From Yuukianura sp. NJ FZ-2021 (lineage: Eukaryota): a stretch of DNA of 64,000 nt. A program made the position numbers and the translations under genes. The DNA is taken from the NCBI GenBank assembly GCA_046563655.1, contig CM102283.1, positions 8,308,001 through 8,372,000 on the forward strand, written 5' to 3'. The notes below the pieces were generated by a model. That model saw only the letters and a program-made list of their open reading frames with translations, was not told the origin of the DNA and searched no databases. Shown here piece after piece: positions 15,401-63,131 of this stretch. Positions within the stretch are counted from its first letter, which is position 1; each line of letters starts with the position of its first letter.

Positions 15401-15864
15401 CTCCATCGGAATCCAATTGACTCAAGACTACTTTCTATGTTCAAGTACTGAATTCTGAACAGTATTCTGAACAGCATCTTCCACTTTTCAAACTTCCCTC
15501 CCGCCTAACCACTCTCACCCTCCATCATTCCGGGCTTCTGCAAACATTCATTTCCTCCCCCTCTCCAAACACTTCAAAAACAAAAAAAAATTATGAAGCT
15601 TTTTGGTCTCGGTTTTGTTAAGACTTTAAGACGATTTGTAATTTGGGTGATGCTGGAAGAAAAAAAAACGAAACTAAACGAAAAAGTTTAAAACTCTTCA
15701 AAACTTGAACATTCAAAAGCTCTGAACTGAAAATTCAAAACTGAAAGTTCGAATTTTGAAAGTTTTGACACAACCAATGGAAAAGTTTTAGCATAAATTA
15801 TTGTTGTATTGAAGTTTTTATTAAAAATTGATTTTTTGTTTTCATTTTTTTCAGGACTAAGACG

Positions 15865-18538
15865 ATGGTTGGATCAAAATTCAAGTGTTGGATGGAAACT
15901 CAAGTAGCGAAAGTTCGCGTATCGAAAGCCAGACCGTGGAGAGTTCGTGAAGACGGTACCGGAAGTTCCGGCGTACCGAGTTCCAGTAGCAACGATACTT
16001 CGATACTGCTAGGAGGCGGTAGCAGCATGGGATCATTTACGCACAACCTATCGTCGCCCGATACTGGCTACTCTACTGACGGCTACTCACCGAAGAGCCA
16101 GCATCCACCATTTCCAGCACAAATCAATGCTGTCCCAGTATCCAAGACAAGCATTCTGACACAAAGTAGAGCTCAACGGCCTGAAAACGCGCAGAATCAG
16201 ATCTTGGCTTCGTTCATTTCATCTTCTGGACTCCGACCAGCCCAAGAATCACCTAGAAAACCGCCGCGGTTGAGCAAAATCAAACAGCAACTGGAACAGC
16301 AGCAACAGCAGGAAATCACGAATACTGCCGAGGTCAAAGTTGAATGTGACATTTCAAAAATTAGAACTTCGGTGGTATCGTCAAGCGGAGATTCTGGACA
16401 GGGTACGCTCGGCAGCAATCGTCATTCGGGAGAGTCCTTCGGCCATCTTCGGTTTCCAAATATTAATGAAGAACCGCGGGAAACTGAAATTTTAAGCGAT
16501 TGGGCTCCTACTGACGAAGATGTTGACGAAGGCGTTCTGACTCCCACTCCAACTCCACCGCCATGTCCACGGTCACCTTGCCCCGGTAAGTCTAAAAAAA
16601 TCAAATTAAAGTTAACTTTTTATGAAACTTGAACTTTTTCGTTTTTGTGGAAGGCATACCCGATGCATCAGTTATCCAAACTTCTGAATTGCCCAAGGCC
16701 TATGACACGCTCCAGCTTCTCAATCAGTGCAATCACGTCTTTCCACTTCCATCTTGTACAGGGCCACGGTGCCTCCAAGCTCAATCCGAATCGCGTGCAG
16801 GCAACTCACGAAAACGCGGGAAATCAAGCGGTCCCTTTGGGTTTTTCAAAAAGCTGTTTAAACGGAAATCTTCAGTTGAGCGTGACCTGCCAGAAAATAG
16901 TCGTGGAAAACCGATTAGAACTGGTCCAGGAACGTACTGGCTCACTCCAACTCCAAATTCCTTTAGAAAGAGAACTCTAGATGCTGGCAACTACTGCTCA
17001 ACTACTATTCCAAAGGGAGTCAAAAGTGACATCATTCGACTACCACAAACGACCCCAACTACACTGCCAACTTCAACCTCAACACCAACACATATCGCTC
17101 CTCGTGACTCCCCGTTTCTTTCCCGCCTAAATTCAACAGCAGCATCCCCAGCATCTATTAGATTCAAACCACAACAAATCGTGACTCCAATACATCAGTC
17201 TCCACGGCCAATGCTGGCATTTGCAGGATCCGAAGACATGTTGCCACCACGTCTCCCGCCACCAAACATTCCTACAACCAATAGAATTCAACCACCGAGT
17301 TACAACAATTACTCACCGATTCATCGCTTAGTGGTGACTACTGGTGTCCATCCGTTTCATCATCATCATCGTCCAGCTCCAGAATCTCCGTTAGTCCGAG
17401 CTTTACATACACGTCCACCACCACCTCCTCCTCCAAGACAAGCGATTACGCCAATTCTGGTACCGAAAGGACTCGATCATGGTTCGTCCCGGTACCAGTA
17501 CATTCCTTCGTCCAATCAGAACTCTCCAAATTTGAATCACGTCGTCCCGCGAAGAGTATCTCTGCCATCAGTTACGTTTGAGGCGAAACATTACTATGCT
17601 TCACCGTTGACTCAAAATTCCTGCCATGCGCAAAGACTGCAGCCTCCAGTATCAGCTGTTCCTCCAGTCCAGTATCAGCCACATCAGGGTTTTGAAATTG
17701 ACCGAATTTATGAAAAAGTTGAAGGAACGGAAGTTAGCGATGAGGGAGACGGAGAAGGCGGAGTTTATGAAATCGATGATGTATCATGGGGTGACTCGGA
17801 ATTGAGTGTCAGTCAAGGTCAAGAGTCAAGTCGTTCTAGACAATCCCAGTCGTCAGCACAAGCGAGCCAATCAGCGCTCCCGAGAACTGTTCAAATGGAA
17901 CCTCCAGCGCCAAGATTCCCGCCAACATCTTGGAACTTTACCAAAACGGAACTGAAACTGTTAGAAAAAGAGGCGGATTTGAAATACCAAAAGTTACTTT
18001 GGGAGGCTGAATTACTTTTACGTCAATTTACTATCGATGACAATAGAAAAGTCAACTTACAAAATATTCCAAGACAACGTGTTCAGCATGTCCAGCATCA
18101 GGAACGTCGAGAAACGTTTAGAGAATGTTCGCCAGCAAGTGACCCGCTACGACGAAAGGTAAACCCTTTTGGTCATTAGCACTAAAACAATAAGCGCGAA
18201 TTCCACAAGTTGGCAACAGTGGAACTAAACATTATGGGTTTGATTTCATTGGTAATGCACGTTCAGTGTTGCCAACTTGTGGAATTCGCGCTTATTGTTT
18301 TCGAGCTAATGACCTGGAACCATTTTTCATGGCTTATTCCTTATGGCTAAGGTGAAAGGTCAGTGATTAATGATATTTTCTTGATTAATTGTAGACCTAT
18401 GACTGCTGGGCTTTACGTCGACTACAACAGGAGTTGGCACTTGCTTCACCGCCAGTTCTTCATCGTTCCCGCCACAATCTTCAGCCGAGTAATCCACATA
18501 ATCCCAAACTCAATCATCATCATCATCCAGTCATCTGA
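15865..18538 (+). CDS. Uncharacterised Pro/Ser-rich, probably largely disordered protein (3 coding exons)
   Basis: Exons 15865-16585, 16654-18158 and 18395-18538 join in frame across GT-AG introns. An acceptor (tttttcag) ends at 15854, just before the ATG. Long ORFs (255 and 516 aa); no domain recognised. Confidence 0.8.
18171..18314. mobile_element. Fold-back / MITE-like inverted repeat in intron 2 of the unknown gene
   Basis: Left arm ggtcattagc..aaaacaataagcgcgaattccacaagttggcaaca pairs with right arm tgttgccaacttgtggaattcgcgcttattgtttt..gctaatgacc. Confidence 0.75.
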
Positions 18539-22923: not shown

Positions 22924-25900
22924 ATGGAAACCAATCATATTCAAAATAACGCGCCTCCGGCGCAAGTGTCGTCGAAGCCATCGCCCCTCAAAAGAAACAA
23001 ATCCAAAGTATGGTGGAAATCAACCCTGGAGGTACAAAATTCCTTTGTTCTAAAATTATTTTTTGCACACACTTTGAAATTTGCAAACTGCAAACAAGTT
23101 GTCATTTTTTGCAAATTGAAGTCTCAATCAGTTGTCATTGTTGCGAATTGAAATGACATTGAACGCATAGTAATTCCATTTGCTAAAAACAACTTTGTCA
23201 CCCCCTGTATTAGCTTTTTGCAAGGTTCAAAAACTCGTCATGTCTAAAAGTTACTTCATCGCGTCGTCAAGCATCATCAGTCAAAAATGTTTTAGCGAAA
23301 GTCACTTTTGATTTGTTGACGATTGCAAACGTCAAGTCAAGTCACAAAGTCTAAAAAAAATTAAGTTAGTCAAAAGTTTTGCATGGACAAGGTGACACTG
23401 AGACGACAGGATTTTGGCGGTCACCTTTCGTCCAGAAAGTTCGGACAGGATAAAAGAGGATAAAGAGGAGATAAAGATAAAGATTTGAGGATAAAATCAT
23501 CCAAGGTTGAACGGTACCGAGGTACATGAAATTTTCTGAACTCTGGACACGGTTTCGACACACAAGTTTTGATTCCTGGCGCCAAAAAACCGTTCTGGAC
23601 TGGTTTGAAATGACGAACTGGCATTTCCAAACCTTTTGACTGTTCTTAGCGCTTTAAAAGCTGAGCTGTTTGGAATTGGGGTCATGCAATTATGGATTAA
23701 GGTCAGGAGCCACTCATTTAGTAAAGTTAGCAGCGTAGGCGTGGTGGTCGGGAATTTGTATGACCGAGGTCAGCACAGGTCACGACGGCCTCCTTTGACT
23801 CTGGCCTCATCTTCACCTTGTGAGATTCATCGTAGCGTTAGCATTTTTAGTACTTTTAGTGCATCTTATGTTTCCAATTTCATGGAAAAGCACTGGGAAC
23901 TTGTAAGTTGCAGACCTGACCTTTGGGCTCCATAAAGACACGCATGGGTACTGCAAAAAGTAGTTTTTAAGGAGGTTGCTGTGAATAATGGTGACACAAG
24001 ATGTTTAGACTTTGGATAACCTATGGTGATCTGCGTGACAATTTTTACAATTGGTGGAGACACGACCATCTACTTGTAATTAAGATTCATCAGTTCCACT
24101 TTTCCAGCCCTCCAGAACTTTTTTGAGTGTCAGACTGAGGAAACACAGTCACAAACAAACAATAAGTAACAGACAGACGACGCTAAAGTAAGTTGCGAAA
24201 TTATAGACGTGACGTAGAACACACGCTCCACGTCAACGTTTTAGTATTTAATAGTCTTCTGCTTCCATTTAGGTACGCAGTTCCCTTGTTTTTAAATTAT
24301 TCCGTATTCACACATATTCCACAACTGTTTGGCAACTTTTTTGAATTTGGGCGCAACATTTTGGAACAATTTTTCCTTTCTGCGCAGGTTCACATGATGG
24401 AGTCAAGGTGGGAAGGGGGCAGTCATAAGGGCGAACCAGGGTGGACCTTTGACCAAGAAGGCTCCGAACATGAAGTGTACCCGCTATTCTGCGAAATGTG
24501 TCAACTCGTCCCGGATGACCGGGTTGGCCGACTAGAGTGGCGGGAAACTGCAAGGTATGTCACCATTTTCAAATTTTTTTCAAATTTCAAAGCTAAAAAA
24601 ACTCGGCTCTGCAATTCACAAATTACGCTATCCATTATAAGGGCCCCCCGACACCGAAACCTCGACAAAAAATGTTTAAAACAATAAAAAATTCCTATCA
24701 CGGGTGAACCAGGTTTGCGGGAAATTTAAACCAATTCAAATAAATCAAATTATATTTAATTCAGTATATTTATTTATAAGTAGTACATTAATTTGTTTAT
24801 TGCATAGTATAGCAATTTCCATAAATTCATTGAAACATATTATTATATCAATTGTTATAGTATGTAGTATATGAATTGATATATTATTATATCAATTTTT
24901 GTATTAAATAGGATATTAATATATATATTTAATGATTATGCCCCGGGGGCAGGAGTTTTTTTGTGATTACGTAATTTGTGGGTACCTTTGTATAACCTGT
25001 TGGCGTCTCATTCAGACCTTACTCACCACGTAACTATTTTTCCAGTGACTGTTGTTTGTAAACCTGGTTTTTAAATTGAATGTTGTTAAATTACAGGTTA
25101 ATTAAAATTTCCCAGTATTTCCCCCAATTACTTGTGTGGTATGCAGATGAATTCGGCTGTAATTTTCCAGTACGATTACCAAGAGACACATTCAATTACT
25201 TTTATTGCGTCTTTTCAATTGTATGAAACTTAAGTTAACAAGACGCCATAGCCTCAATTGCCCGTTTTTTGCAACAAGTTTTTAATTCTCTGCAGATTAA
25301 GCCTTTCAAAGCACGTACCATTCAAAAAGTCTCGTCATGTCCATGTCACATTTTTGCCCAAGGACAACTTTTTGTGTCCAAAAGTGTCCACTTTTGAATT
25401 ATGTCCTTGACCTGACACCATATTTCATTTACATATTATTATATTTATATTATATGTTACATTATATTATAGGTGGGTCAAATATGAAGAGGATGTGGAG
25501 CAACGTGGAGTTCGGTGGTCCAAGCCCTTCGTTCCTACCGTGGCCCTTAAGTCCCTCTACGACCTCAAGGAAATCCTCACAACGCAGCCAGTTCTGCTCA
25601 ACGTTGAAATTGAATCTTTAGAGCGTACGTGTGGAACAGTAGTTGACGCATGGGCCAAAGGTGGACTTCTGGATGACGCAGAACGCATGCGCGTGCTCCA
25701 AGCACTCCTCAGACGCCATGTCCACTTGTACGAACGGCCTAGCGGAGTGGCTACGCTTGGAATCCAGCCTGCTTGTCTCACTAAACAAAGAAAATGTAAT
25801 ATAACCTGAAAATTATTTAAATTTTTAGCCTACCTTACTAGGTACTAACTTAACTAAAGTCAAAATTTTCTCGAAATTCCGGTTTTTCGGAATTCCAAAT

Positions 25901-28900
25901 TTTTAATTAATTGTTATTTCATGTTTCCATTTTCTACTTTTTTGAAGTGACAAGACGTCCGAGTGAATTTTTGAGAAGGCCTAGCCTAGGATCAATGCGC
26001 GTAGAACCGGTCAAGGATCCTAGCAAGGTATGGACACGTAATGTTTACGCTGGAAAAACTCAAACTTACCTAAAATTTTGAGAAAAAAAAATTTTTTTTC
26101 TTCTGATTTTTAGAAAAATGTAAATTTTATGAGAAAACTTCCAAGGAATTCAGAGTCGGCCAATATTTTGGTAGGAGAGATGAGTATTTTGAAAAAACCG
26201 ATTGCCGCCTTTTTACGTTTGAAAGAGGCGCGTGTACTGGGGAACATCACAGAAGTCCCTCTGCCTACCCGCTTTGTTTTCTTCCTCCTTGGCCCACCGA
26301 ATGCTCACTTTGACTATGTTGAGCTAGGGAGGGCCCTTGGAGCCCTTATGACCGATCCTAAGTTCAAGGAAGACGCGTACTTGGCAGATACGAGGGAGAG
26401 ACTACTGGAAGGGCTGGACACTTTTCTAAATGCTACGTCAATTCTGCCTCCAGCTACGTGGGACGCTTCCATCAAAATTGAACCACCTTCAATGGAACAG
26501 GTAAAAAATGAAAATTTAATATTTTTTAAATTCAAAAATTCCCGCCACAAAATTTTTAAAAAAATATTTCCGCAGCATTCCAGTTCTGGAGACTGTTCGG
26601 ACGACGAGGACAATGAAGACAATGGGTTGAAAAGAACTGGGAAATTCTTTGGCGGGCTCGTCAAAGACATCAAAAGGAAAGCTCCTTGGTAAGTTTTTCG
26701 GTGGAGAATTCTCCACGGAGAATTGTTCCCGGTACTCTAAAAATGCAAAATATTCAAAAACTGTTAAAATTATGTAAAAATATGGGTATATAATGTATAA
26801 TATGGTTGACCTTTGACCTTAGGTATTTGTCGGAGTTCACTGACGCTCTGTCGCTCCAGTGCCTGGCGACATGGTTGTTCCTCTACTTTGCCTGCCTCAC
26901 TCCCATGATAACTTTCGGTGGACTCATGGGCATTGCGACGCATAATAACATGGGTACCATGGAAACGATGGTCGCCGGATGCATTTGCGGTGTCATCTTT
27001 GCTCTGTTTAGTGGTCAACCACTCATTATCCTCGGCTCAACCGGTCCTGTGCTGGTTTTCGAAAAAATCCTGGTCCACTTTTGCGAGTACGAACTTAGCT
27101 TAAGACAAAATTTTTTGAAAATTGACTATTAACTAACTAATTAATCGATTAATTACTTAATTAATTTTAGGTCGAATCAACTGGACTACATGGAGTTTCG
27201 ATTCTGGGTGGGAATGTGGGTGGCAGCGACAATGCTGATACTGGTGGCAACAGATGCCAGTGCATTTGTTTCCTACATTACAAGATTTACCGAAGAAAAC
27301 TTTGCCACGTTGGTGGCAATCATTTTCATGGTAGAAGCTGTCAAGGTATGAACTTACTAGGATTTTACGTTTTACGTAAATCGTAAATTGTAAATACGTA
27401 AATTTACTTTTTAGAACGTAATGCTAATTCGACATGGACCGTCAGTATCTGCCTTGAAAATGCTGAATCCGAATGACACCAGTGACAATCAGACCCACTT
27501 GATAACAATTGCTGAGAATGTGACCAAGGCATGGGCATGGGACTACGAAGTTGACTCTGATGAACCTACTCGTAGTTTGAATGTAAATTTTTCAAAAAAT
27601 GAAAGAATTTCAAAATTTTGAAAAGTTTTTGACTTTGTTCTTTAGGATTCTTACATTGACGATGATGAGGCTGACAGGCCAGTGAAGGCCAAGCTGACTC
27701 CGTACGAACAAGAGCGTCGTTTATCCATTTTCTTAACTTCACTCCTCCTCTTCGCTGGAACTTTTTTCGTGTCGTACATTTTCAAAGAATTTCGAAACTC
27801 CTCCTTCTTTCCAACCTGCGTACGCCATCTAGTGAGTGACTTTGCCGTGGTCATTGCCATTCTGAGCATGTCACTTCTGGACATGGGCCTTGGAGTGGAC
27901 ACGCCCAAACTCGTCGTTCCTGAAAAATTTGAACCGACAAGAAAAGATCGTGGGTGGGTGGTCAATCCAGTGCGGGCGAATCCTGTTTGGACCATTTTTG
28001 CAGCATCGATTCCAGCACTTCTTGCCTCCATTTTGATTTTCATGGATCAGCAAATCACTGCTGTCATTATCAACAGGAAAGATCATAAGCTCAAGGTAAG
28101 TTTTCAAAAAGTTAACCGAATAATCAGGGATGTCAAACATATTTAGTTTCCATTCTGTCAATTTTACAAAACACATATGTGAATGGTTTTGTTACTAAAT
28201 ATTTATTATATTTATTATACTTGCCCATTCCATTAATGTTAAATAAGTAAATACAGTGGATTCTCTAAATAAGGGACAGGAGCTCCTCCTCTTTCTCACT
28301 TTCACTCGAAGTCGCGGTACCGTAAAGTTTTAATTTTGGAGGGAACGTATGTTTCAGTTTATCGGCTTATTTTTTACGATTGTTTTTTTTTTTTTGGTTA
28401 ATTTTTTTTGGTGCGAAACAAAAGTAATTAGATAATTAAATAAAATTAACTAATATTAATATATCTGCGCACAACCTGCGCAACAGCGCACAACCTGCGC
28501 AACAGCGCACAACCTGCGCAACAGCGCACAACCTGCGCAACAGCGCACAACCTGCGCAACAGCGCACAACCTGCGCAACAGCGCACAACCTGCGCAACAG
28601 GGCACAACCTGCGCAACAGCGCACTGTATATAATATAATATATTATATAACCTGTTTAATAAGGGTGACATTCACAACGTAATTTGCATATAATATACCA
28701 TATAATATTGATTAGTATATAGATATCACATATAATTAGCATTAATATATGAATATTATGTATATTAATATTAATTATATACTCTGAACTTCGAAACAGG
28801 AAATTTTCATTAGAATGGTGTTCCTAGCCTTAAATTCCATATAACTGACCGTTTACCAGAAATCTTACGGTACTGGGGGAGGCGCCTGCTACCAATCCTC

Positions 28901-30288
28901 CAATCGTGATTTTTTCCCTTATTTAGAGAATCCACTGTATTTGGGCGATTTTTAAAAAAAAATAATTAAATATAAATTATATTCATAAAAAATATTATTT
29001 AAAAACATATTTTTTTTATTAATATTTACGGTTGTTTTAGCACATATTTTTGACAACCCTGCTAATAACGTAGTGTTAGCCTAACCAGAATTGAATTTGC
29101 TAACTTTTGAAACATTTTCCTGCCGTTTTGCAGAAAGGGTGTGGCTATCACTTGGATTTGTTCGTGTTGGCAATTTTGATTGTTCTGTGCTCATCGTTTG
29201 GACTCCCATGGTTCGTAGCTGCAACAGTAGAAAGTGTAAGCTCGATATTCAGAAATTTTGAAAGTTTTTTTTTAGTTTTCTTACTTTTTTTTTTGAAATT
29301 CCAGTTGACGAACATTAGTTCGCTGAAAGTGGATTCGGAATCGGCAGCTCCCGGAGAAAAGCCGACATTTCTCGGAGTTCGGGAGCAGCGTGTGTCCAAC
29401 CTCTTCGTCTTCTTTACCGTCGGACTCTCCGTTTTCCTAACACCAATGTTATCCCACGTTCCGATGCCAGTACTCTACGGTAAATGTTAATCTGGATTAA
29501 TTTTGATTACTAATTGATTAACTTAATTAACTTAATCTTACGGATTATTCCAGGAGTGTTTCTGTACATGGGGTTTTCAGCGCTCCTGAAGATGGAGCTG
29601 TTTCAGCGCACACTCCTTCTGTTTATGCCAATCAAGTACCAACCAGATCACAGTTACCTGAGTCAAGTGCCCCTCATAAGGGTCCACTTGTACACGCTCA
29701 TCCAGGTCACATGCTTGGCATTGCTCTGGATCATCAAGTCTGTCAAGGTCACTGCCATCCTGTTTCCACTCATGGTAAGACACGCAAAGTTCATTCAAAA
29801 AAGCAAGGTTGCTATAGCACCGAAATAGTTTTCTTTTAACAGGTTAGGCAATAAGTCCAGTTTTTGAAAAATCTTGAGTCAAACATTTTGGTTTTTTTTC
29901 TATCTTTTACTACTTTTCTACTTTTAATTTGCCATCTCTCCGAATTTTTTCTGTTTACCATACGAACCTCGATTGAAAGTAGGTTAACCTGTTAAAGAAA
30001 AAGTATGCCTTTCTTTATCAACCTTGGAAAAAAGCTTTTTGAAATAGTTTTTAGGAAATGGTTTTTTAAATTTTCAAAATTTTCACTTGTTTGTAGTTGG
30101 TAGTGATGATGGTTGTGCGGAAACTGCTGGACTTTGTCTTTACCTCGAGTGAGCTACTGGCCTTGGACGACGCACTGCCGCAGAGTCATAAGGTCGAAAA
30201 GGAAAAAGAGCGAAAAATCTCAAGGACAATTAGCCTAAATACACACAATAACAATTCACCCATGGCACCTCTAGCAATTCCCTGGTAA
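22924..30288 (+). CDS. SLC4 bicarbonate transporter, Na+-coupled (NBC/NDAE-like) type, multi-exon
   Basis: [102 protein letters not shown]; exons bounded by GT-AG. Confidence 0.95.
28254..28937. mobile_element. Tc1/mariner/pogo-type MITE nested in the previous element
   Basis: Perfect 23-bp TIR CAGTGGATTCTCTAAATAAGGGA / TCCCTTATTTAGAGAATCCACTG with TA on both flanks; no transposase ORF. Confidence 0.85.
28467..28624. repeat. 19-bp minisatellite, about 8 copies
   Basis: Unit gcgcacaacctgcgcaaca repeated head-to-tail inside the MITE. Confidence 0.95.
29830..30040. repeat. Dispersed repeat in an SLC4 intron (longer copy)
   Basis: Both ends are the reverse complement of sequence at 6370-6448 (aagctttt..ccaaggttgataaa..tttttctttaacaggtta; ttattgcctaacctg). 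Confidence 0.65.
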
Positions 30289-31057
30289 ATTTTGAAAATT
30301 AATTTCGAAAAAAGACAACTGAAAATGTTCTAAAGTTGAATTTTGAATTTGACTTTCCAGTGAATACAAATCAGACGATTCCGGTGTATGAAAATTTTGA
30401 GGAAAATGGAGCGCTGGAGTACTAAAAAGCGATGCTTATTTGAGCAGGACGTTTTTTTGAGGAAAAATTTGAATTTCAAAATTTGGAAAATCAAAATGTT
30501 TTTCAAAATTTTCAAGAATGTTATCCTAACTCCAGTTTAAGTTATCCATGGGCCGGTTTCCATTCCACGCTTTTGTTTTTTTTAAACAGAGAAGCGGTAG
30601 CAGTATTTTATGCAACAAATCTTTGAGCTTATGATCACAAGTTGTAGAAAGTTTAGAAATTTCAAATGTTTTAGATTTAGAAATTTAGAACAAAACAAAA
30701 AGTTTAGAAAACTTCGTTCGTAGCTGGACTAACTCTTTGACGATTTGTCTGTTTTCAAAAAAAATCAAAAAGCCAAGAAATAAAAATTGTTTTCTTTTTT
30801 AAGAAAAGTGGCGTCTGTTTAGAAAAAGTTGACACGATATGCGCTTGTTTATTTATGTTCTCACGTTGAAGTGTTGCAGAGACGCGCCAGGCGCAGGGGC
30901 GGAGTTCATATCGATCCATCCACAAAAATTCGGATCGATACCCGAATTTCACACCTTGCAGAGTCCAGACAGACCGTAGACAGCATCTCTTCTGGACACA
31001 TTGACGTTAAGCTTCCGCCTGGAAATCCCCCTGGTTCAAAAACACAAACCATTTCAG

Positions 31058-31240
31058 GTAAATTTTCAAATTTTTTCAAAATTTCAAAAAAAAAAAAATG
31101 GCTCACCCCAATTTGCCACTCGGCGGTTCCTAGCTGCTCGAATTCCGATATTCCAGGACTTCTGGATTCCTTCTGGGCTTGATCTGTAAAAGTTTTCAAA
31201 ATTTTGAAACCATTTTTGAAAAAGTTGGTTTAACTTACAG
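31058..31240 (+). other. Putative 5' UTR spliceosomal intron of the MscL gene
   Basis: Donor CAG|GTAAAT at 31058 and acceptor taacttacag ending at 31240, one base before the ATG at 31242. The upstream exon has an in-frame TAA (31008-31010) with no ATG after it, so it would be untranslated. Confidence 0.6.
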
Positions 31241-31241
31241 G

Positions 31242-31709
31242 ATGGGAGGGTTCAAGGACTTTATCATGCGTGGGAACTTGATCCAGCTCGCTGTGGCTGT
31301 GATCATGGGCGTGGCTTTTGGTAACGTCGTGAATGCTTTCACCAAAGGACTTATCACTCCGCTCATTGGCATCTTTGGACAAATTCCGTCGTTTCGCGAC
31401 CATAAATTTACAATCAACGGAAGTGAGTTCCGGTACGGCGAGTTTATTGACACGCTGATCGCTTTGTTCATCACGGCATCAGTTCTGTACTTTGGAATCG
31501 TCTACCCCTGGGAGTACTTTACCAAAAAAGAAGAAGAATCGGTCATGCGCGACTGTCCCGAATGTGCTTCGTCTATCAAGAAAAAAGCAGTTCGTTGTCC
31601 GCATTGTACTTCCTCTGTACTGGCAATTCCACCGGATGAACCGAAACCTACGGAAGAAAAAAAGTCACCAGCAGCAACACCAACCAAAAACGATCCGGAA
31701 CCGGTTTAA
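31242..31709 (+). CDS. mscL: Large-conductance mechanosensitive channel (MscL family), 155 aa, with C-terminal CxxC-x10-CxxC tail
   Basis: MGGFKDFIMRGNLIQLAVAVIMGVAFGNVVNAFTKGLITPLIG matches the MscL S1 helix and TM1. FRYGEFIDTLIALFITASVLYFGIV matches TM2. A post-TM2 KKEEE cluster is followed by CPECASSIKKKAVRCPHCTS. The CDS is intronless. Confidence 0.93.
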   Translation: MGGFKDFIMRGNLIQLAVAVIMGVAFGNVVNAFTKGLITPLIGIFGQIPSFRDHKFTINGSEFRYGEFIDTLIALFITASVLYFGIVYPWEYFTKKEEESVMRDCPECASSIKKKAVRCPHCTSSVLAIPPDEPKPTEEKKSPAATPTKNDPEPV

Positions 31710-32388
31710 AACCGGAACCGAAACCCGGTACCGGACTAAAATGCTGTATTCGGACTAAACTCAATGTCCGCCATCCTAAACTCGCAACTTTGCAAAATGT
31801 CTGCCATTTCACTTGCATTGCCATGCACCATACACATACTCAGCACAAATTGCATCGACGCTAAACATATTCCAACCCCCCCCCCTTAAAATTGACCCCC
31901 CCCCATCTCCTTAAAGTTAGAAAAGCACCAAATTTTTGTGAAAAGTCAAAATTTTCTGAAATCTCATGTGTAAAAAGCAGACTCAAGGCTTAAAACTGCT
32001 ATTTGTTTTATATGTCTAATAGGCTTTATAAACGGAATCTCATAACTTTTACATTTTTGGCTATTTTCGAATAATTTGCTTAACGATTAACGTGATTAAC
32101 GTTATAGCCATCACCATTAGTGGAAAAACTAAACAAGTTTTAGAAGAAAAAACTAAACAACAATTTGTTCTAAACAAAAAGTTGTTCTAAACATAGATTG
32201 TGTTCTAAATGATGGTTGTGTGAGATTTTAAAGCTAATAAATACTGATGCGTTCAATGTCGAATTACAAAAGGGAAAACAGTTAATTAACTGTTAACGTT
32301 AATTGTGATTACTTGGCTAATTAAGGACGAAGTTTTAGTAAAAAGTTTGGAATGGGTTTTTGTGATGACCCGATGACCAAATTGATTT

Positions 32389-34314
32389 TTAGAGGTCATC
32401 GTCTCCAATACCAGCGAAGACGCTGTTTTCTAACATCCCGCGACTCCTAGTGTTATTTCGATTTCGTTTACCAATGAGAAAGTCTGTGGAAGAACGACGA
32501 GATCCTTCAGTCTGATTCGTATGAGCGATTTTCAAATCTCCACTAGTACTGCTACTACTGCCAGCATCCGAACTGCTCGCAGATGCTTTCTAAACAAAAA
32601 CAATCAAGTATTGAAAAAACTAAAATCAACTTTCTCTGGAAAACTGGACTCACTCGCAGATCTTTGGCCGGTGAATTCTCCTTGGCCAGCATTTCTTGAA
32701 CAACTTCTTGGAGACAGAGTCCCATCAGCACTGCTTCGTCCGAAACGACACTCAGCCATTCCAGCTTATCCTTTCCCGCGAGATATTCAAACGACAACTC
32801 AGAGTGTATCTTGCCATCTTTCTCCTAAACAAATTAAAATGGTATCACTAATGTACTTTAAAGGAATTAGTGATGAATTTTGAAAACTTACATGTTGAAG
32901 AGAAATTCTCCAGCACTTGATTCTTGTGACCTTGAAAACGAGTTCTTCTCTCGTATTAGAAATGAAAGTCATTTCTCTATTGCCTATGTACACCGTCATG
33001 GGAGAGGAAAAGTGTGTTGAGCAATCAGGAAACTTGAGAGCTCCGAAGAACTTCAAAGTTTTGGCTAATCGAACGTATTCTGCCTTCTTCCCTTGTGTTT
33101 GAAGGACGGCTAGAGCATGCAGTTTTTCTTTGTCAACTTGAATCCAACCAGATTCAATGTCGGCTACTGTTTGGACGTAGAGCAAATGGAGACCAACGGG
33201 ATCCGATTCCAGAAGGTCATTAGTCGCAGGTTCCCACCGAGATTTCCTAAATACAATTCTAGTGTCATCGCCATACAGTCCAAGGGAGATACATGGGCAT
33301 TCGTAGTCTTCTAGTCGTCCGACAACTGAAAATGGGACAAAAACAAACAAATGTCAAATAGTATCAAAGTCCAAAGTAGAAAAAATATCTACAACCACAA
33401 TTGCGTGCGAATAAATCGCATGTTCAAAAAGGCATGCAATTTGGAAAATTGTCCTAAAATTATACTTTTATGATTGTGATGAGCATGTTCCCATTGTTTG
33501 AAAACTATTGGGACGACATTTATCAAAACATAGCCTATTTTTTAGTAGAGTAGCAAAAGTTGCATTTACTTTTCCATATTCCGTTCGGCGTTCGTTGAAA
33601 AAAGTAGAGACCAAAGAAACCGATTTTGTCTGGTTTCAGTCCCAAGTCCTCTCCCACCATCTAAATCCAAATCAATCAAGAAATTAAGCGAAAATCAACA
33701 GTTCCTTTAAGCTATCCTGGATTTACCCGTAAAAGCGTTGAAGTTGGTGCATTTGACGGTATTTCCTGTAATCTCTCTTGGCCATTAGATAGAAAGACAT
33801 GAATCGAACAAGTTCGCAGTTCCTCTCCGCTGGACTCGTGTTGGACGTGTCGAAGGTATGTTCGGAATACATCGGAGCAAATAATGTCCTCTACACCTCC
33901 AACTACACCCAACAAAAACCGATTAAATTACTTCAATCGAAAAGCTAAACTTATGATTAATTTGACTTATGATAAGCCTCACGTGTCTGCATGTATTTTT
34001 CTAGACCAAGTCGTCTATCCTCCAACTGAACAGTAGAGAGCGGAAGAAGTTTTTTCGGTGGAAACGACGGACGTTGGCTCTTGATTCCGCCAACTTGACC
34101 CAACTTCTCATGTAGACTTAGAAATTGACTGTACCGGAGAGAAGCATGGTACTTTCCGTTTATAAATACCTTGTAAACCTACAAAACAGTGATCAATTAA
34201 TCAACATTGTACGATTTAGAGTCCATAGCATTGTACAAGTAAGTACTGTGGACATACCGTGTAACATGTTTCACTGGTTCGGATAACCTCCGTGTCCGGA
34301 ATTGAAAAATGCAT
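32389..34314 (-). CDS. SNX17: Sorting nexin 17 (PX-FERM)
   Basis: N-terminus MHFSIPDTE, PX motifs RYSQF/FPPKKL, FERM-like FKVTRIKCWRI and C-terminal ENSVFAGIGDDDL*; multi-exon. Confidence 0.95.
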
Positions 34315-35036: not shown

Positions 35037-37039
35037 ATGAATCCCATGCGTCAGGATTCTAGAAGTTTGGTCTGGAATCTTCATGTGGTCAGATGGTACA
35101 CTTAAGTTAATTAAAAATCGCAATTAATTTGAGTAATTTTTGCAGGTCATCACCAACATGTGTCGTTTCATGGACCCAGGCGAGGTTCCAAAACTCAGAC
35201 TCGTTAATCAGGTTTGCAACTACGCCGCTCTGCTGTTCATGAAACAAAATGGCCACCGTCCTACCATTCGCTTACGAACTGACGACGACATTTCATCGTT
35301 TCTCGCCGTCATGTCCAAGCGTACCAATCAGGAACTTCCAGCATTCTGCTCGTACAAGTTGGCCCTTGCGTCGACTTCATTGCACCGCGTTGAGCAGTTC
35401 GCCTCCAAGTCATCTGACCTGTTTGAAATTGAGTTCATTGGTAAGCACCGTAGATCTACTGGGGAACTGGCTCTACCTGAAGACAATTCTCCAGCAGTCC
35501 TTGATCAACAAATTGCTTCTGGCCAATTCTGTTCCAAAATACTGTCAGTATTGAAGAAAGGATCCACTCAACTCCAGAAGATTTCCATTAGGTGCAAACG
35601 GGACGTTCCTCTGGACCAAACAAAGGTGAACGAATTTCCAGAAAATTTCCCGAATCTTCGAGAAGTTAAGGCCCGTTACCTCTCACATGGATTCCAAATG
35701 ACATGTGACATGGTGTCCACAATAGTTTCCCGAGCTCCGAAACTTCAGATGCTGGAAGTAACAAACTTTGTTGGACAAAATCGCTGGATCCACAACTCTC
35801 TCTTTCTGCCACGTCTGGTTCAAATTCTAAATCGTCCAAATCCACCGTTTCTAAAACTGAACACTCGACTGACCCTACAAGATGATATGGACTCACTTGA
35901 AACTCTCATGAGAGTTGCCAAGTTCAATCGCTTGCGTGTTTTTGAATTTATGCTGATCTTTGAAGAAGTGAATCAAGACCATAGTGGAAATCTTCTGAAA
36001 AGATTTTCAAAATTCCTCAAGTTCCAGGGTCCAGCGCTCCAAGAATTGGTTGTGCTGGCTGGCGGAAGTGAAGTCAACCACACTCTGCAACTTCCAGAGC
36101 TTCCGAATTTGAAAAACTTGCAAATTGCAACCGACAGTGACTTCAAAAAAAGTGTTGTCCAGAGTCTGATGCCGAACCAGTTTCCAAATTTGGAAACTCT
36201 GACAATTTCTGGACACAATTTGTACAAGCATTTCGTTGGATCAATTGTACTTCCTTCGGTGAAGACGCTTCTGCTGGCTCTTGATACCTCAAATGCTTCT
36301 CCAGTTGAAGACGCAAGTTCTACTAATACAATTCACATTAATTTTCCGAATCTGACAACCCTTCTGCTTTGCAACAAAACTTACAAAAATCTGAAACGAG
36401 TCGACTACGTTTTGAATTATTTGGATAACCTTGAGGTTCTGGTTCTGAGTACCAACATGACCTTGAATCATCGCGGCGGAAACGCTTTCTGGAAAACTTT
36501 TGCTGGAAAACACAAGCGGCTACCCAAACGGGCCATTTTGAAATTGTGTCAACGTCAGGTCAGATCAACTAAAAAAAATTAGGCAAGACAATTAGTTAAT
36601 TGTTCAATTAATCTCAATTACATTTGTGTGTCACTTACAGCCGAAGGAGCCACTTGTTCGGGAAGAAAGAGAGGCAGTGAGGGTGAATAGCTACGACAAA
36701 CTACCGTCATTGGGCAATCTCCGAAGTTAGTTACTCTGAAGTGACCTTGAATGAATTTGAGCTTTGTTTTTTAAATTTTGCTGTTTTAAAATTTTGAAAA
36801 AGAGTTGAACCCCCTGCAACAACTTCATCTGCGATTCACCCATGGGAACTCTATTGACCCAGAGGTAAGTCTTTACAACATGTTTGTTAATTTTCATAAA
36901 TTATTCAATTAATTGCAATTATATAAAGTTTCGTCTTTTGTAGGACCAATATGATTATGTGCGTATGCTGCGACGATTCCATCACGAAGTAACAGTTGTA
37001 CAACTCGGTCCACCTCCACGCAGAGGAATCCGTATTTAA
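35037..37039 (+). CDS. Divergent F-box-like / leucine-rich-repeat protein
   Basis: N-terminal LVWNLHVVITNMCRFMDPGEVPKLRLVNQVCN resembles an F-box, followed by repeated FPNLxxLxL units. A 480-aa main ORF plus small flanking exons with GT-AG sites. Confidence 0.75.
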
Positions 37040-58934: not shown

Positions 58935-61900
58935 TTAGAATCTGTTTTTTCAACAGCTGTTGGAGCTTCAGTAGCCGCAGTCGAGTTGGAGGGAGTTTGA
59001 TGTGGTGACAATGGAGTGAGATCTACTTTCAGTGGCTCCCTCTTGACGACCTGGCCTGACGAGGATCCGTCCAGCTTAAAAATAGCAAATGTTAAGATTT
59101 GACCTCAAGTTGACCTCTGCAGGCTGAAATTCAAAACGTATTTTAAAATATTTTACCGCTTCCAGCTCAACTGGACTATAAAATCGGACGAGTAGAAATT
59201 TGCGAATTATTGGCAACGTTACAAAGCAAATCGGTAGAACTAAGGCTCCAGGGGAGGTCTTGATGGCCCAGATGATTGCCAGTGCAAGGAGCTCAATCAA
59301 CGTGAAAACATGCATTTTCCAAGTCCGAACCTAGAAAAAACAACAAAGCGTATCTGAATTTCAAAATTCCGGCTTTCAAAATATCCGAGGCGCCAATTTT
59401 TCAAAACTTCTTACTTGTTTGACATAGGGTACTTCGGGGTAGTTGGATACTTGCTTGAACATGAGATACGTTCTGTCAGCAAACTGCATTCCTTTCAAGG
59501 ACGTTATGCCCATGTACAGGAAAAAACCAAGCAAAACGGACGTTGGAACGTACTGAAGTGCTCGGCCCATTACCACCGAAAATCCCAAGATAATACTCGT
59601 AAAAAGCGCGGTAAGTCGCTGTTCTATTTCAAAAAAATTAACAAAACGTTTTGAAAAACTGCAAGAACGAAAATGATGAAGGTCAAAGGTCACCTTTGGT
59701 TTCTATGATTTCAGGCGGTACTCCTGGTGGATTATTGGTTGAATACACTGCCAAGGCCATAAGATGTGTCACTCCGCGTAATGTCGCCGGTGACAAAAAG
59801 TTTGTCCCAAGTAGCCCCATTAAAGAATTTATGAAACAGATCAGCAGTACGTCTGCGTGGAATCCTCCGCCTTTCCGCATCAAAGACTCCTTCCGGTCCA
59901 TCAGCAACCTTTTCAAAAATCCAAAACAATTTTTCAAAAAATCATTTTTTTTGTCAAAAACGGAAAATTTTTTGATTTACTCTGCAATAGACAGTTCAAT
60001 GAAGACGACAACAAACAAGAGTAGTCCAGGCGCCGACGCAGCAAAGATCCACGTGACTGACAGGCGCATTGGATCCACGATCCATCCAGAAGGTCTTGCA
60101 AGTGCTGACACATTGTCGCTTCGTGTAGTTCTTAAACCATAAGTAATGGCATCCGGCAGCACAAGGTTCTTGTGTACGGGGTCAAACGGGGTCAAAAAGT
60201 AAGCCAAAATGGACATAACGACGATACTCAAGAAAACTCCGAAGTTGCCTAGATGTTTTCGGATGAGTTTTGTGCCATAAGTGGAGTTCTTGAAGGCTCG
60301 GAAGGTCATTGCCAGTGAAAAAGTGGTCATCATTAGCCCCAAATTAGTAAAAAACACTCCAGAGTCAGCAAGACTGCACAGATACAAAATTTTAACTTAA
60401 TTTTTGAAATTCAGTTTCAAAATTTTCGTTTTGTAGCAAAATTTCTTACGTTTTGGTCTTGAGAACTACGAGGTCCATAAATTCCTCAGTGACGAGCTTA
60501 AAACTTTCCCAAATGAAAACAACCTTGTACCCAGAAAGGGAGTAAAAATTTGAAAATTTGAAATTAACTTTTTGAAAGAGTCAAAATTTTGAAACATGCA
60601 TACCGATATAAAAACGGCAAAAATTTCTTGTGTGAATCGTGACAAGTATTTGGCAAGTACGCTTCCTTCGGCTGCAGTCACAACAAGTCCAACGACACTC
60701 ATCCAAATTCCGGTCCAAAATCGCATCGCAAGAAACTCATTCTTCATGTCCATGTTCACACAAAACTGAAATCCATCGAGTTTCCAGTAACATTCCAAAA
60801 TTTCGAAATTTCGTTTTTCAAAATTCAAAAAATCTCCTCTTACATCGTACAGACTCATTTCAAAAACCAGCAGAGATCCACTTGTCGCCAAAACCAACAG
60901 AGGTTGACATCCTAGAAGAGCAAAAATGACTCCGCCAACGGACGATCCCAGCAAATTTTCAGAAATACCGACAAAATTTTCTGTCTTCCTTGCTGTTTTA
61001 CACAAAAAATCAATCCGAGAAATGTTTAACTGAAAATCGCGAATTTTCGAAATTCGTTTTTGTTTAACCTAAGGTGGCTCCAAGTGCACAAGCTGACGCG
61101 ACGCAAGCAAAGTACATGAAAATCGCAACGGCAAGGCATTGCACGTTGAGTCCATCCCGAATGTCGGACCAGTAAAACGCGTATCTTCTGCGTATGTCAT
61201 TCCAAACTCCACCGAATGGACGCTTTGTACGTTCAAATGGACCGCCGATGAATTTGATTGGTTCTGGTTCACCTTCCTCCGAAAATTCAAGACTACCACG
61301 AAGTTTTCTGACGTAAATTGAATGTGCCCGGGCTTGAAGTTTTTGAATATGGAACATTTCATAGTCCCATTCTCCATGAGGAATGATCATGCTATGAAAT
61401 TTAAACCAATTTCATTAATTTTATTTACATTTTAAATAATTTTGATCAAATTAACACAAATCTTTGGTGGCTCAGAGTGCCAATGCTGTTTTTGCTATTT
61501 TGTAATTCAAAGAGAGTTTCAATTGCATTTCTTATTTCAATTTCAATTGCAATAATATTTTCATTTCAATAGCAATTTTATTTGCATTTGCAATTGAAAA
61601 ATTTCTAAGATCTGCGAGAAAATAGGGTAAAATTTCATTTCAAATGCATTTGCAATTGAAATGAAAATACAATTGCAATGGAAATGGACGTAGAAATCAA
61701 ATTGAAATGCAATTTCTATTAGAAATTGACAAAAACGAATTTGGCACTCTGGGGCCACCATATAAATCTAATCAATTAACAAAAATTAGGCGAGAGAAAT
61801 TACCTCGCGTCCAGAAATTCGTTCAGAGCAACCAAAATTTCACGCCGTTCACGCGCCTGGTAAATAATGTGACGAAATATCTGAAAGAAAAAATGCCTTT

Positions 61901-63131
61901 TTTTTAGAAGAATTTGGAATTCTGAAAACAGCGAATTTTTGAACTTTTGAATTTCTTTTCCTCATTTACTGAATTTGTAAGGAGTACGCCCATGCAACGT
62001 CCAACTTCTGAGTATGTTATTTCGCAAGTTGCAGGACCCAGCAGTACAAACACAAACCGAACTGGTATTGGAACCTAATCCAAATTTTGAATTTTCAATT
62101 TTTATTTTGAAATTTTGAAAGTTCTGGGAATGTTACCTCAGTGAGTCCAGGCATGAGTATGCCTTCGGCCAATCGCACAAAAGCGACTGCAAGTCCTTTG
62201 AGCGTCTCCTGCTCACTGCACAGGATGACGGCAGCTTCGGCTTCTTCCGGAATCCGCCGAACCAAGTGCGACAACTGCCGAATCCCCCGGATATCCTCTA
62301 GAGAAAGCAAAGAAATATTTCCAGCACCGCCTGTCTGAAATCACAAAACTCAAATTCAGTTTATTTTCATGTTTTTTTGAAAATACTGAGCCACCTAACC
62401 TCTGTTCCTCCAACATCGATTTGATTCATTTCCCTCTCTAAGAAGTTCCAAACTTTTTCAGAATCGTCAACATGACTGTGCTTCAGCAGCAGCGTTTTCC
62501 GCACAATTTTCAAATCGCTGGATTCCAGAACTTCCAGGTTATTGACAATTTCTGAAACTATACTTGCCATGTCAGTAGCTTCCAAATCCAAAAGAATTGG
62601 ACCTGACCAACAAAATTTCATTTTCAAACCAAACTTTTTGTCTTTTCTAAAAGTTTTTTTCAAAAAATTCAATTTCAAAAAGTTTTTGCCAACCAGCTTC
62701 CATAATACGACGGAGGTTAACCAATGAGTGGAAGTTGAGTGCTGGAATGTGCGGTTTGCCCCACCGAGATTCATTTTCTTCCAGCGCTTCTTCGTACTTG
62801 ATCCACCGTGATACTTGTCGCCAGCAATCTTGTGACAAAACATGTTGCTCCACAAAAAGCTAAAAATAGGTCACGGTCAGAATCAAAAAGTAAAACATGA
62901 AACTTTTTCGTAAAAAGTGCCGTTAGGAAGCTAAAATTTTGAAATTTTGACACCTACCATACGGTCTTCATGCTCGAATTTGCTAAATTTTGTAAGACTT
63001 TCTTTGTCGTCACTAGGTACATCCAGAAACAACTCTCCAAGGTCCAACGTCCTTGAAAATAAGCGCAGATCATTGCAATCTTTTAAACCAACAGAGCGCA
63101 GGCGCAGTTCGTTCTTGGCGTCTGAACCCAT
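58935..63131 (-). CDS. SLC4 anion exchanger (AE / band 3-like, divergent), multi-exon
   Basis: WRQVSRWIKYEE, RWGKPHI, GLTEV|PIPVRFVFVLLGP, PFERTKRPFGG, LSRFTQEIFA, FIELSIAE, KGGGFHAD, ATLRGVTH, EQRLT, FFLYMG. Confidence 0.92.
61465..61760. mobile_element. Palindromic MITE-like element in an SLC4 intron
   Basis: TIR tggtggctcagagtgccaa / ttggcactctggggccacca; the interior is built of inverted caattgcatttc-type motifs. Confidence 0.75.

Follow-up and report, generated by a model that had tools for sequence, protein, structure and literature searches.

MscL is the textbook osmotic safety valve of bacteria. The channel is built of five subunits and closed by a hydrophobic ring; when the membrane comes under tension, the helices tilt and a wide pore without selectivity opens. 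To our knowledge, MscL is not counted among the channels of animals. Here we describe an MscL gene at positions 31242–31709 of a 64,000-nucleotide stretch of the Yuukianura sp. NJ FZ-2021 assembly (GCA_046563655.1, contig CM102283.1, positions 8,308,001 to 8,372,000 of the forward strand). This whole stretch is referred to below as the window, and all coordinates are given within it; an earlier note had read the gene as a horizontally acquired, retained channel of bacterial type.

The solved MscLs, namely 2oar from Mycobacterium tuberculosis together with 3hzq, 4y7k and 9tiv, have the same N-terminal helix S1, two transmembrane (TM) helices and Lys/Glu cluster as the protein encoded in the window (P0001). 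P0001 differs from the 2oar type at its C-terminal end, where the helix of the cytoplasmic bundle has given way to a zinc ribbon and a disordered tail of 33 residues. The N-V-V-D-L motif of the solved channels, moreover, has exchanged its Asp for Gln (NLIQL in P0001), and the host of P0001, unlike theirs, is an animal. Closer in design are the MscL-zinc-ribbon proteins of Nocardiopsis spp. and Thermobifida cellulosilytica (L081–L085, L094; P0025), which have the architecture and the sequence NL[IV]QLAVAV in common with P0001. Their genes, however, lie in a bacterial chromosomal context, have a G+C content at third codon positions (GC3) of 0.92–0.98 and encode tails of 9–14 amino acids (aa), compared with 0.51 and 33 aa for P0001. 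Zinc ribbons and extended tails like those of P0001 are also found in proteins of Folsomia candida (P0006) and Bradysia coprophila (P0010 and P0021), which nevertheless belong to different sub-branches.

A comparable distribution is known from another gene family. According to PMC11665903, canonical terpene synthases are common to Sciaridae, Collembola and Acariformes and are read as a case of intraphylum transfer. These enzymes belong to a different family, but they are likewise microbial-type genes found in fungus gnats and springtails; the branch order of the MscL proteins within the arthropod clade is too weak to argue for movement from arthropod to arthropod.

MscL-like genes in arthropod genomes are already on database record, and the present genome is not alone in having one: springtail and gnat models have been given MscL names by automatic annotation at NCBI. 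A literature search found no paper on arthropod MscL genes, including those of Folsomia, Collembola, Sciaridae and Bradysia. The words 'mechanosensitive' and 'MscL' are absent from the main texts of PMC5490193 (the Folsomia genome) and PMC13342648 (a compendium of metazoan horizontal gene transfer), the supplementary lists of which may name the Folsomia gene. Overall, we consider it likely that the window gene is a nuclear gene of its host that derives from a Nocardiopsis/Thermobifida-like actinomycete MscL-zinc-ribbon gene through an old transfer, and that it is still under constraint.

A complete MscL gene

The coding sequence (31242–31709, + strand, stop included) is complete and intronless; it runs over 155 codons from an ATG at 31242 to a TAA at 31707–31709, in agreement with the intact 155-aa open reading frame (ORF) described earlier. 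The reading frame between stops opens at 31134 and has no in-frame ATG before that at 31242, which lines up with the first residue of all homologues. A tblastn search found a single MscL copy within the window.

Profile, sequence and structure searches agree on the family. The Pfam MscL profile (PF01741), proposed earlier as a check, is matched at E 3.1e-27 over residues 2–113 (95.8 bits, with a cutoff of 27.4), and TIGR00220 mscL at a borderline 71.0 bits, its cutoff being 71. Among PDB sequences, 2oar MscL is matched at E 2.1e-12; six different MscLs of solved structure have E values from 2e-12 to 2e-10, and a pair of archaeal fusion constructs has E 0.002. The Pfam, TIGR00220 and 2oar matches together put membership of the family far beyond chance; P0001 falls below the cutoffs of the narrower NCBIfam MscL equivalogs. 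The AlphaFold model, for which an alignment of 141 sequences was used (mean predicted local distance difference test score, pLDDT, 76.4), has helices at residues 2–8, 11–45 and 65–101, a beta hairpin at 56–63 and a disordered end. When this model was compared with the PDB using Foldseek, 2oar came out on top (E 2.3e-4), followed by the archaeal MscL 4y7k.

Origin and phylogeny

A search of 5.8 billion proteins returned 755 matches, 120 of which were listed. The best are metagenome or Logan proteins with 50–62% identity. The named animals among the 120 matches listed are F. candida and B. coprophila alone, with three proteins: the F. candida 'large-conductance mechanosensitive channel' (P0006; 61% identity, on a 12.9-Mb contig) and two B. 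coprophila 'large-conductance mechanosensitive channel-like' proteins (P0010 and P0021; 59% and 50% identity, on contigs of 1.9 and 2.6 Mb). The broad vertical presence across animals that would speak against a transfer was not seen among them. The first named bacterial match is Nocardiopsis algeriensis with 54% identity, and in a scan that took a single genome for each prokaryote species, five Nocardiopsis and T. cellulosilytica came out at the top (51–55%). In the Protein Atlas, the MscL clusters are bacterial only.

The relationships among these sequences were taken from a thorough maximum-likelihood tree of 58 rows and 145 columns, whose supports are given as ultrafast bootstrap/Shimodaira–Hasegawa-like approximate likelihood ratio test (UFBoot/SH-aLRT). 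The 18 rows that we call arthropod-like, a label assigned by clustering since most of them are metagenome or Logan proteins, form one clade (100/98) on a stem of 0.42, which includes F. candida and the two B. coprophila paralogues. The sister group consists of seven Nocardiopsidaceae rows (Nocardiopsis and Thermobifida; 100/95), followed outwards by Allonocardiopsis (100/96) and then by Streptosporangiaceae. The outcome was the same in two earlier trees built from different rows, with supports of 97/91 (57 rows) and an SH-aLRT of 91 (83 rows). Because the bacterial branches follow actinomycete taxonomy and the arthropod clade comes off one family, the direction of transfer was from bacterium to arthropod. 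The horizontal acquisition proposed in the earlier note is therefore borne out by the nesting of the clade among bacterial zinc-ribbon MscLs with Nocardiopsidaceae as its sister, and a single entry from an actinomycete into arthropods would be the simplest reading of the tree.

Within the clade, the window MscL groups with P0002, P0122 and P0123 (99/97). P0122 (330 aa) and P0123 (179 aa), both from JGI contigs, are its closest relatives after P0002, and their own grouping with it is supported at 97/91; they have no N-terminal helix, an altered start of TM1 and long C-terminal repeats of II-NAGFEVL-DLK-like modules, and they may be either paralogues of a line that has been remodelled or faulty gene predictions.

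The C-terminal region carries two further marks of descent. Of the 270 nearest proteins, 242 have the CxxC..CxxC motif; the zinc ribbon thus arrived with the gene and is a trait of the subfamily rather than a ground for exclusion from MscL. The tail that follows it measures 14–42 aa in 27 arthropod-like sequences (at least 22 aa in 26 of them), as against 9–14 aa in eight sequences from Nocardiopsis, Thermobifida and Allonocardiopsis. In the sequences compared, a tail extension of 20–30 residues is shown to be a trait specific to the arthropod-like clade. Arthropod-like proteins end in PEPV, PEAV or PEEV, and three of seven Nocardiopsidaceae proteins in PE[TL]V; a PE-x-V ending was counted in 24 of the 270 nearest proteins, all 24 arthropod-like. 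This ending was entertained as an arthropod-specific PDZ or ER-export motif and was dropped in view of the three Nocardiopsidaceae genes. The zinc-ribbon subfamily itself occurs widely among Actinomycetota, Chloroflexota and Acidobacteriota, and a literature search returned nothing that pairs 'MscL' with 'zinc ribbon'.

Integration into the host chromosome

The base composition of the gene is that of its surroundings. The ORF has a GC content of 0.47 and a GC3 of 0.51, inside the range of 0.34–0.61 spanned by 11 host exon ORFs, while values of 0.92–0.98 are found in the MscL genes of Nocardiopsis, Thermobifida and Allonocardiopsis. A metagenome scan recovered 80 loci, each with at most 52% identity and each with a bacterial-type composition; their GC3 has a minimum of 0.55 and a median of 0.76, and lies between 0.89 and 0.98 in the nine closest. 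An AT-rich low-complexity motif, TTTCAAAATTT, recurs upstream of the MscL gene, directly before its ATG and downstream of it.

Logan contigs from four DNA runs, which come from two studies and carry two organism labels, cover much of the locus. A contig of run X3 spans 31217–32340, that is the whole ORF and 630 bp of 3′ flank; it is overlapped by a contig of run X1 (31834–32583) that extends into the terminal exon of the neighbouring SNX17 gene. A further contig (29949–31097) leads from the last exon of the SLC4 gene on the other side up to 145 bp 5′ of the ATG. Run X4, from the other study, contributes contigs at 30452–31095, 31440–31864 and 31906–32841. With regard to a chimeric assembly, which had been raised as a concern, overlapping contigs thus tie the ORF to the end of SNX17, and the second study covers both the ORF and its flanks. 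A separate X1 contig joins 31084 to 31219 via 27 other letters at a depth of 216; it may reflect an insertion or deletion in the low-complexity sequence before the ATG, or else a repeat copy from elsewhere.

The host-like GC3, the animal neighbours and the contigs from two studies make contamination very unlikely, and the MscL ORF is taken to belong to the nuclear genome of an arthropod-like host. These three lines of evidence also bear out the claim of a true integration, and we hold with high confidence that the gene is of bacterial origin and has become part of the host genome.

Constraint and retention

A composition that is fully host-like is slow to attain, yet the ORF is intact, which argues for an old gene that has been kept. 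P0001 aligns end to end with its homologues at 50–65% identity. An alignment of nine arthropod-like sequences has 49 columns without variation, among them the pore stretch of TM1 and the four cysteines, and the sciarid-like group retains two paralogue lines. The contig differences listed within the ORF were read by eye: they fall in seven variant codons, the best-supported subset alongside 398 further differences. In five of the seven codons the change is synonymous (31475, 31481, 31538, 31550 and 31691) and in two it is conservative (R64K and A74T). Were roughly one random change in four synonymous, a count of at least five out of seven would arise in about one case in 80. Retention under constraint, as the earlier note had suggested, is thus moderately supported by the intact ORF, the invariant columns and the variant codons.

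Protein architecture

The S1 helix, both TM helices and the charged cluster that had been recognized in the sequence are confirmed by the AlphaFold helices and the alignment with 2oar. S1 is a predicted N-terminal amphipathic helix (residues 2–8, GGFKDFI; 31245–31265, + strand) whose F4 and F7 are invariant across 22 sequences. Gly2 is present in most arthropod-like sequences and was considered as a site of N-myristoylation; this was rejected on account of the Asp at position 6, which does not fit the consensus for that modification. TM1 (residues 11–45; 31272–31376, + strand) contains the pore-lining stretch GNLIQLAVAVIMG, in which L16, A17, V18, A19, V20 and G23 are identical to 2oar and L13 replaces an Ile. 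These positions are those of the hydrophobic gate of MscL.

An extracytoplasmic loop (residues 46–64; 31377–31433, + strand) follows, with predicted strands at 56–58 and 61–63 that make up the beta hairpin. No variation at N59 and S61 is seen in 22 sequences, and hardly any in 141, bacterial ones included. N59-G60-S61 (31416–31424) would form a lumenal or exterior N-glycosylation sequon if the protein entered the eukaryotic secretory pathway. TM2 (residues 65–101; 31434–31544, + strand) ends in the cluster K95-K96-E97-E98-E99 (31524–31538), the counterpart of which in 2oar is RKKGE.

The zinc ribbon (CPEC-x10-CPHC, with C105-x2-C108 and C119-x2-C122; residues 105–122, 31554–31607, + strand) stands where the canonical C-terminal helix would be, and went without mention in the earlier note. 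Its four cysteines are invariant in 22 of 22 aligned sequences. Pfam zinc-ribbon profiles match weakly (E 0.007–0.013, below their own cutoffs), the region is modelled as short strands with a pLDDT of 83–87, and its local Foldseek matches are RanBP2-type zinc fingers, again weak at E about 0.5. The protein closes with a 33-residue acidic tail (31608–31706, + strand), rich in Pro, Glu and Lys, which ends in PEPV and is predicted to be disordered (pLDDT below 50 at residues 134–154). Since both ends of the protein would face the cytosol, the zinc ribbon and the tail are presumably cytosolic. Prediction of a four-copy complex of P0001 gave a score of 0.12, compared with a mark of 0.42.

Gene model and genomic neighbourhood

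The flanks of the ORF contain signals of a eukaryotic gene. A putative intron of 183 nt in the 5′-untranslated region (5′-UTR; 31058–31240, + strand) is predicted from a donor CAG|GTAAAT, with its junction at 31057/31058, and an acceptor TTACAG|G that ends at 31240, one base 5′ of the ATG; a second possible donor, GTAAAA, lies at 31186. The putative intron holds low-complexity TTTTCAAAATTTT repeats, which break short-read contigs. The context of the ATG is good, with A at −3 and G at +4. In a motif scan of the + strand from the MscL stop to 32500, the sole AATAAA is found at 32236–32241 and is a candidate poly(A) signal. As far as sequence motifs go, the splice and poly(A) signals amount to a plausible eukaryotic gene model.

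The gene sits in an intron-rich animal locus that includes two SLC4 genes, SNX17, a lipoyl ligase, an aminotransferase, a CRAL-TRIO protein and others. Its upstream neighbour is an SLC4 bicarbonate-transporter gene on the + strand, recognized by Pfam (26114–30288 for the tested exons and the last exon): five exon ORFs at 26114–29825 match Band_3_cyto at E 2.6e-42 and HCO3_cotransp at E 1e-29 to 1e-49. Earlier exons probably begin from about 24.2 kb. The last exon (30097–30288) has its stop at 30286–30288, 953 bp 5′ of the MscL ATG. The convergent downstream neighbour is SNX17 (last exons at 32389–33353, − strand), with Pfam SNX17 FERM domains on 32802–33353 and 54% identity to a protein named sorting nexin-17. 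The GIGDDDL ending of its terminal exon (32389–32589, − strand) recurs in the SNX17 homologues P0391 and P0392; the stop of the gene, at 32389, lies 680 bp from that of MscL. Both distances match the approximate figures given earlier (950 and 680 bp).

Two genes near MscL bear on the position of the host. Among the 120 matches listed for an exon of the lipoyl ligase gene LIPT1, the named proteins are all from insects, at about 55% identity; in a quick tree this exon is one of ten sequences that form a strongly supported clade, to which neither Diptera (99) nor Hymenoptera (100) belong. A search with the SNX17 exon yielded three proteins, two with 53–54% identity and one from an ostracod with 39%. 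The host is accordingly placed among the pancrustaceans and is not a fly; it is probably a hexapod-like animal of the soil, and a springtail would be a plausible candidate.

Several further features of the window deserve mention. SLC4-type genes occur twice and on opposite strands, at 24187–30288 (+) and at 59376–62870 (−), the second recognized by eye in the translated ORFs. Two stretches within SLC4 introns (28068–29135 and 29670–29936) have summed contig depths of up to about 112,000, compared with about 200–500 nearby; they show many joints and loose ends and are probably high-copy repeats or transposon remnants. Adjoining SNX17, an intronless ORF of 481 aa (35137–36582, + strand) has no Pfam match at E ≤0.001 and may be a lineage-specific gene. 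Adjoining ORFs of 266 and 517 aa at 15832–18179 (+ strand) are rich in Ser, Pro and Gln and have the highest GC of the window (0.47–0.48). Rfam and tRNA scans gave no matches.

A model of acquisition and function

In the proposed course of events, an MscL-zinc-ribbon gene passed from an actinomycete near Nocardiopsis and Thermobifida into an arthropod lineage. Its base composition has since drifted to host values and the cytosolic tail has lengthened by 20–30 residues, while the 5′-UTR intron would probably have been gained as well. By homology, the protein would assemble as a homo-oligomeric, canonically pentameric pore that is shut by the hydrophobic ring of TM1 (L16/V20); stretching of the membrane would open it and let small solutes pass. 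The likeness to characterized channels suggests a working tension-gated pore, and an animal membrane should be no obstacle, since mammalian neurons made to express bacterial MscL have a working channel (PMC5897719). In physiological terms, the use that we favour for the pore is as a release valve for ions and compatible osmolytes in permeable-skinned soil arthropods upon sudden re-wetting; we regard this role as tentative, with the balance slightly on the side of doubt. The fuller scenario, in which one capture was followed by spread among soil and litter arthropods (springtail-like hosts and sciarid flies) and the channel now acts as an osmolyte valve during re-wetting, is unlikely as a whole.

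A number of observations weigh against the account given here. The main branch order inside the arthropod-like clade is weak (85/34), so that vertical descent with loss and spread between arthropods are inseparable, and the mostly metagenomic or Logan origin of its members, with hosts assigned by clustering, tempers the label of the clade. On the side of the protein, the TIGR00220 score is borderline and the canonical C-terminal helix of MscL is missing. As for integration, the low-complexity stretch at 31097–31217 is crossed by no contig among those listed, so the upstream link to SLC4 rests on the assembly itself; moreover, the best DNA runs may come from the same sample as that assembly, in which case their contigs are good support but not independent proof. 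The count of synonymous codons must be set beside the 398 differences outside the best-supported subset. Finally, animal cells have no turgor, which makes the benefit of a valve that opens near the lytic threshold uncertain.

Alternative explanations

Four other explanations have been weighed against a transferred and constrained gene. A bacterial fragment misjoined to arthropod DNA could account for the stretch at 31097–31217 that is bridged by none of the short-read contigs listed, and for a protein that is typical of bacteria, but such a fragment would hardly have a GC3 of 0.51 when the nearest bacterial genes have 0.92–0.98 and the best bacterial identity is 55%. No second bacterial gene adjoins the ORF, in a window that was not systematically screened for prokaryote-like genes; host-type AT-rich repeats lie on both sides, overlapping contigs reach SNX17, the second study has the ORF with its flanks, and the Folsomia and Bradysia homologues are embedded in contigs of 12.9, 1.9 and 2.6 Mb. 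We consider such an artefact extremely improbable. The same degree of improbability attaches to an ancient eukaryotic MscL that was inherited vertically and lost from most animals. MscL homologues do occur in some fungi; a literature search on eukaryotic homologues yielded no usable statement. The arthropod clade, however, lies deep within Actinomycetota beside Nocardiopsidaceae, in a part of the tree where bacterial branching follows the taxonomy of Streptosporangiales. The zinc-ribbon variant and the PE-x-V ending are common to Nocardiopsis and the arthropod clade, and the three proteins of F. candida and B. coprophila are all that named animals contribute to the 120 matches listed.

The remaining two explanations accept the transfer and concern its consequences. 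The gene could be integrated but idle, without useful expression and intact by chance or because it arrived recently, and it is true that the splice and poly(A) signals are candidates read from the sequence. A recent arrival is, however, at odds with a fully host-like composition in an ORF that is still intact, and chance preservation with the end-to-end alignment at 50–65% identity, the 49 columns invariant in nine sequences, the five synonymous codons among the seven listed and the paralogues kept in the sciarid-like group; an idle gene is accordingly judged quite improbable. Somewhat less so, though still doubtful, is a domestication to other ends: an organellar or secretory channel, a pore for solutes or peptides in gland or gut, or a protein in which the zinc ribbon and tail matter most. 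The tails of 14–42 aa in arthropod-like proteins, compared with 9–14 aa in the bacterial sister group, fit this explanation, and P0122 and P0123, without an N-terminal helix and with repeated C-terminal modules, suggest a family that is being remodelled. Animal cells, furthermore, possess other volume-regulated channels. Against it stand the TM1 pore residues and the charged cluster, which are conserved with bacterial MscL and make channel function the simplest assumption, and the fact that no targeting signal was identified in P0001. A constrained MscL-type channel gene of actinomycete descent remains the explanation that we favour.

Conclusions

An intact, host-adapted MscL in at least three arthropod lineages implies that a bacterial tension-gated large pore has long been kept by animals, and it offers a natural test of such a pore in cells without a wall. 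The gene adds a membrane channel to the arthropod gene transfers of the papers found here, which mostly concern enzymes, and provides a second marker, after the terpene synthases, for the question of whether genes move among soil arthropods. It also points to an apparently unstudied subfamily of bacterial MscL in which a zinc ribbon takes the place of the C-terminal helix. If both the spread among soil arthropods and the valve function were to hold true, a large pore of bacterial origin would be a working part of animal water-balance physiology.

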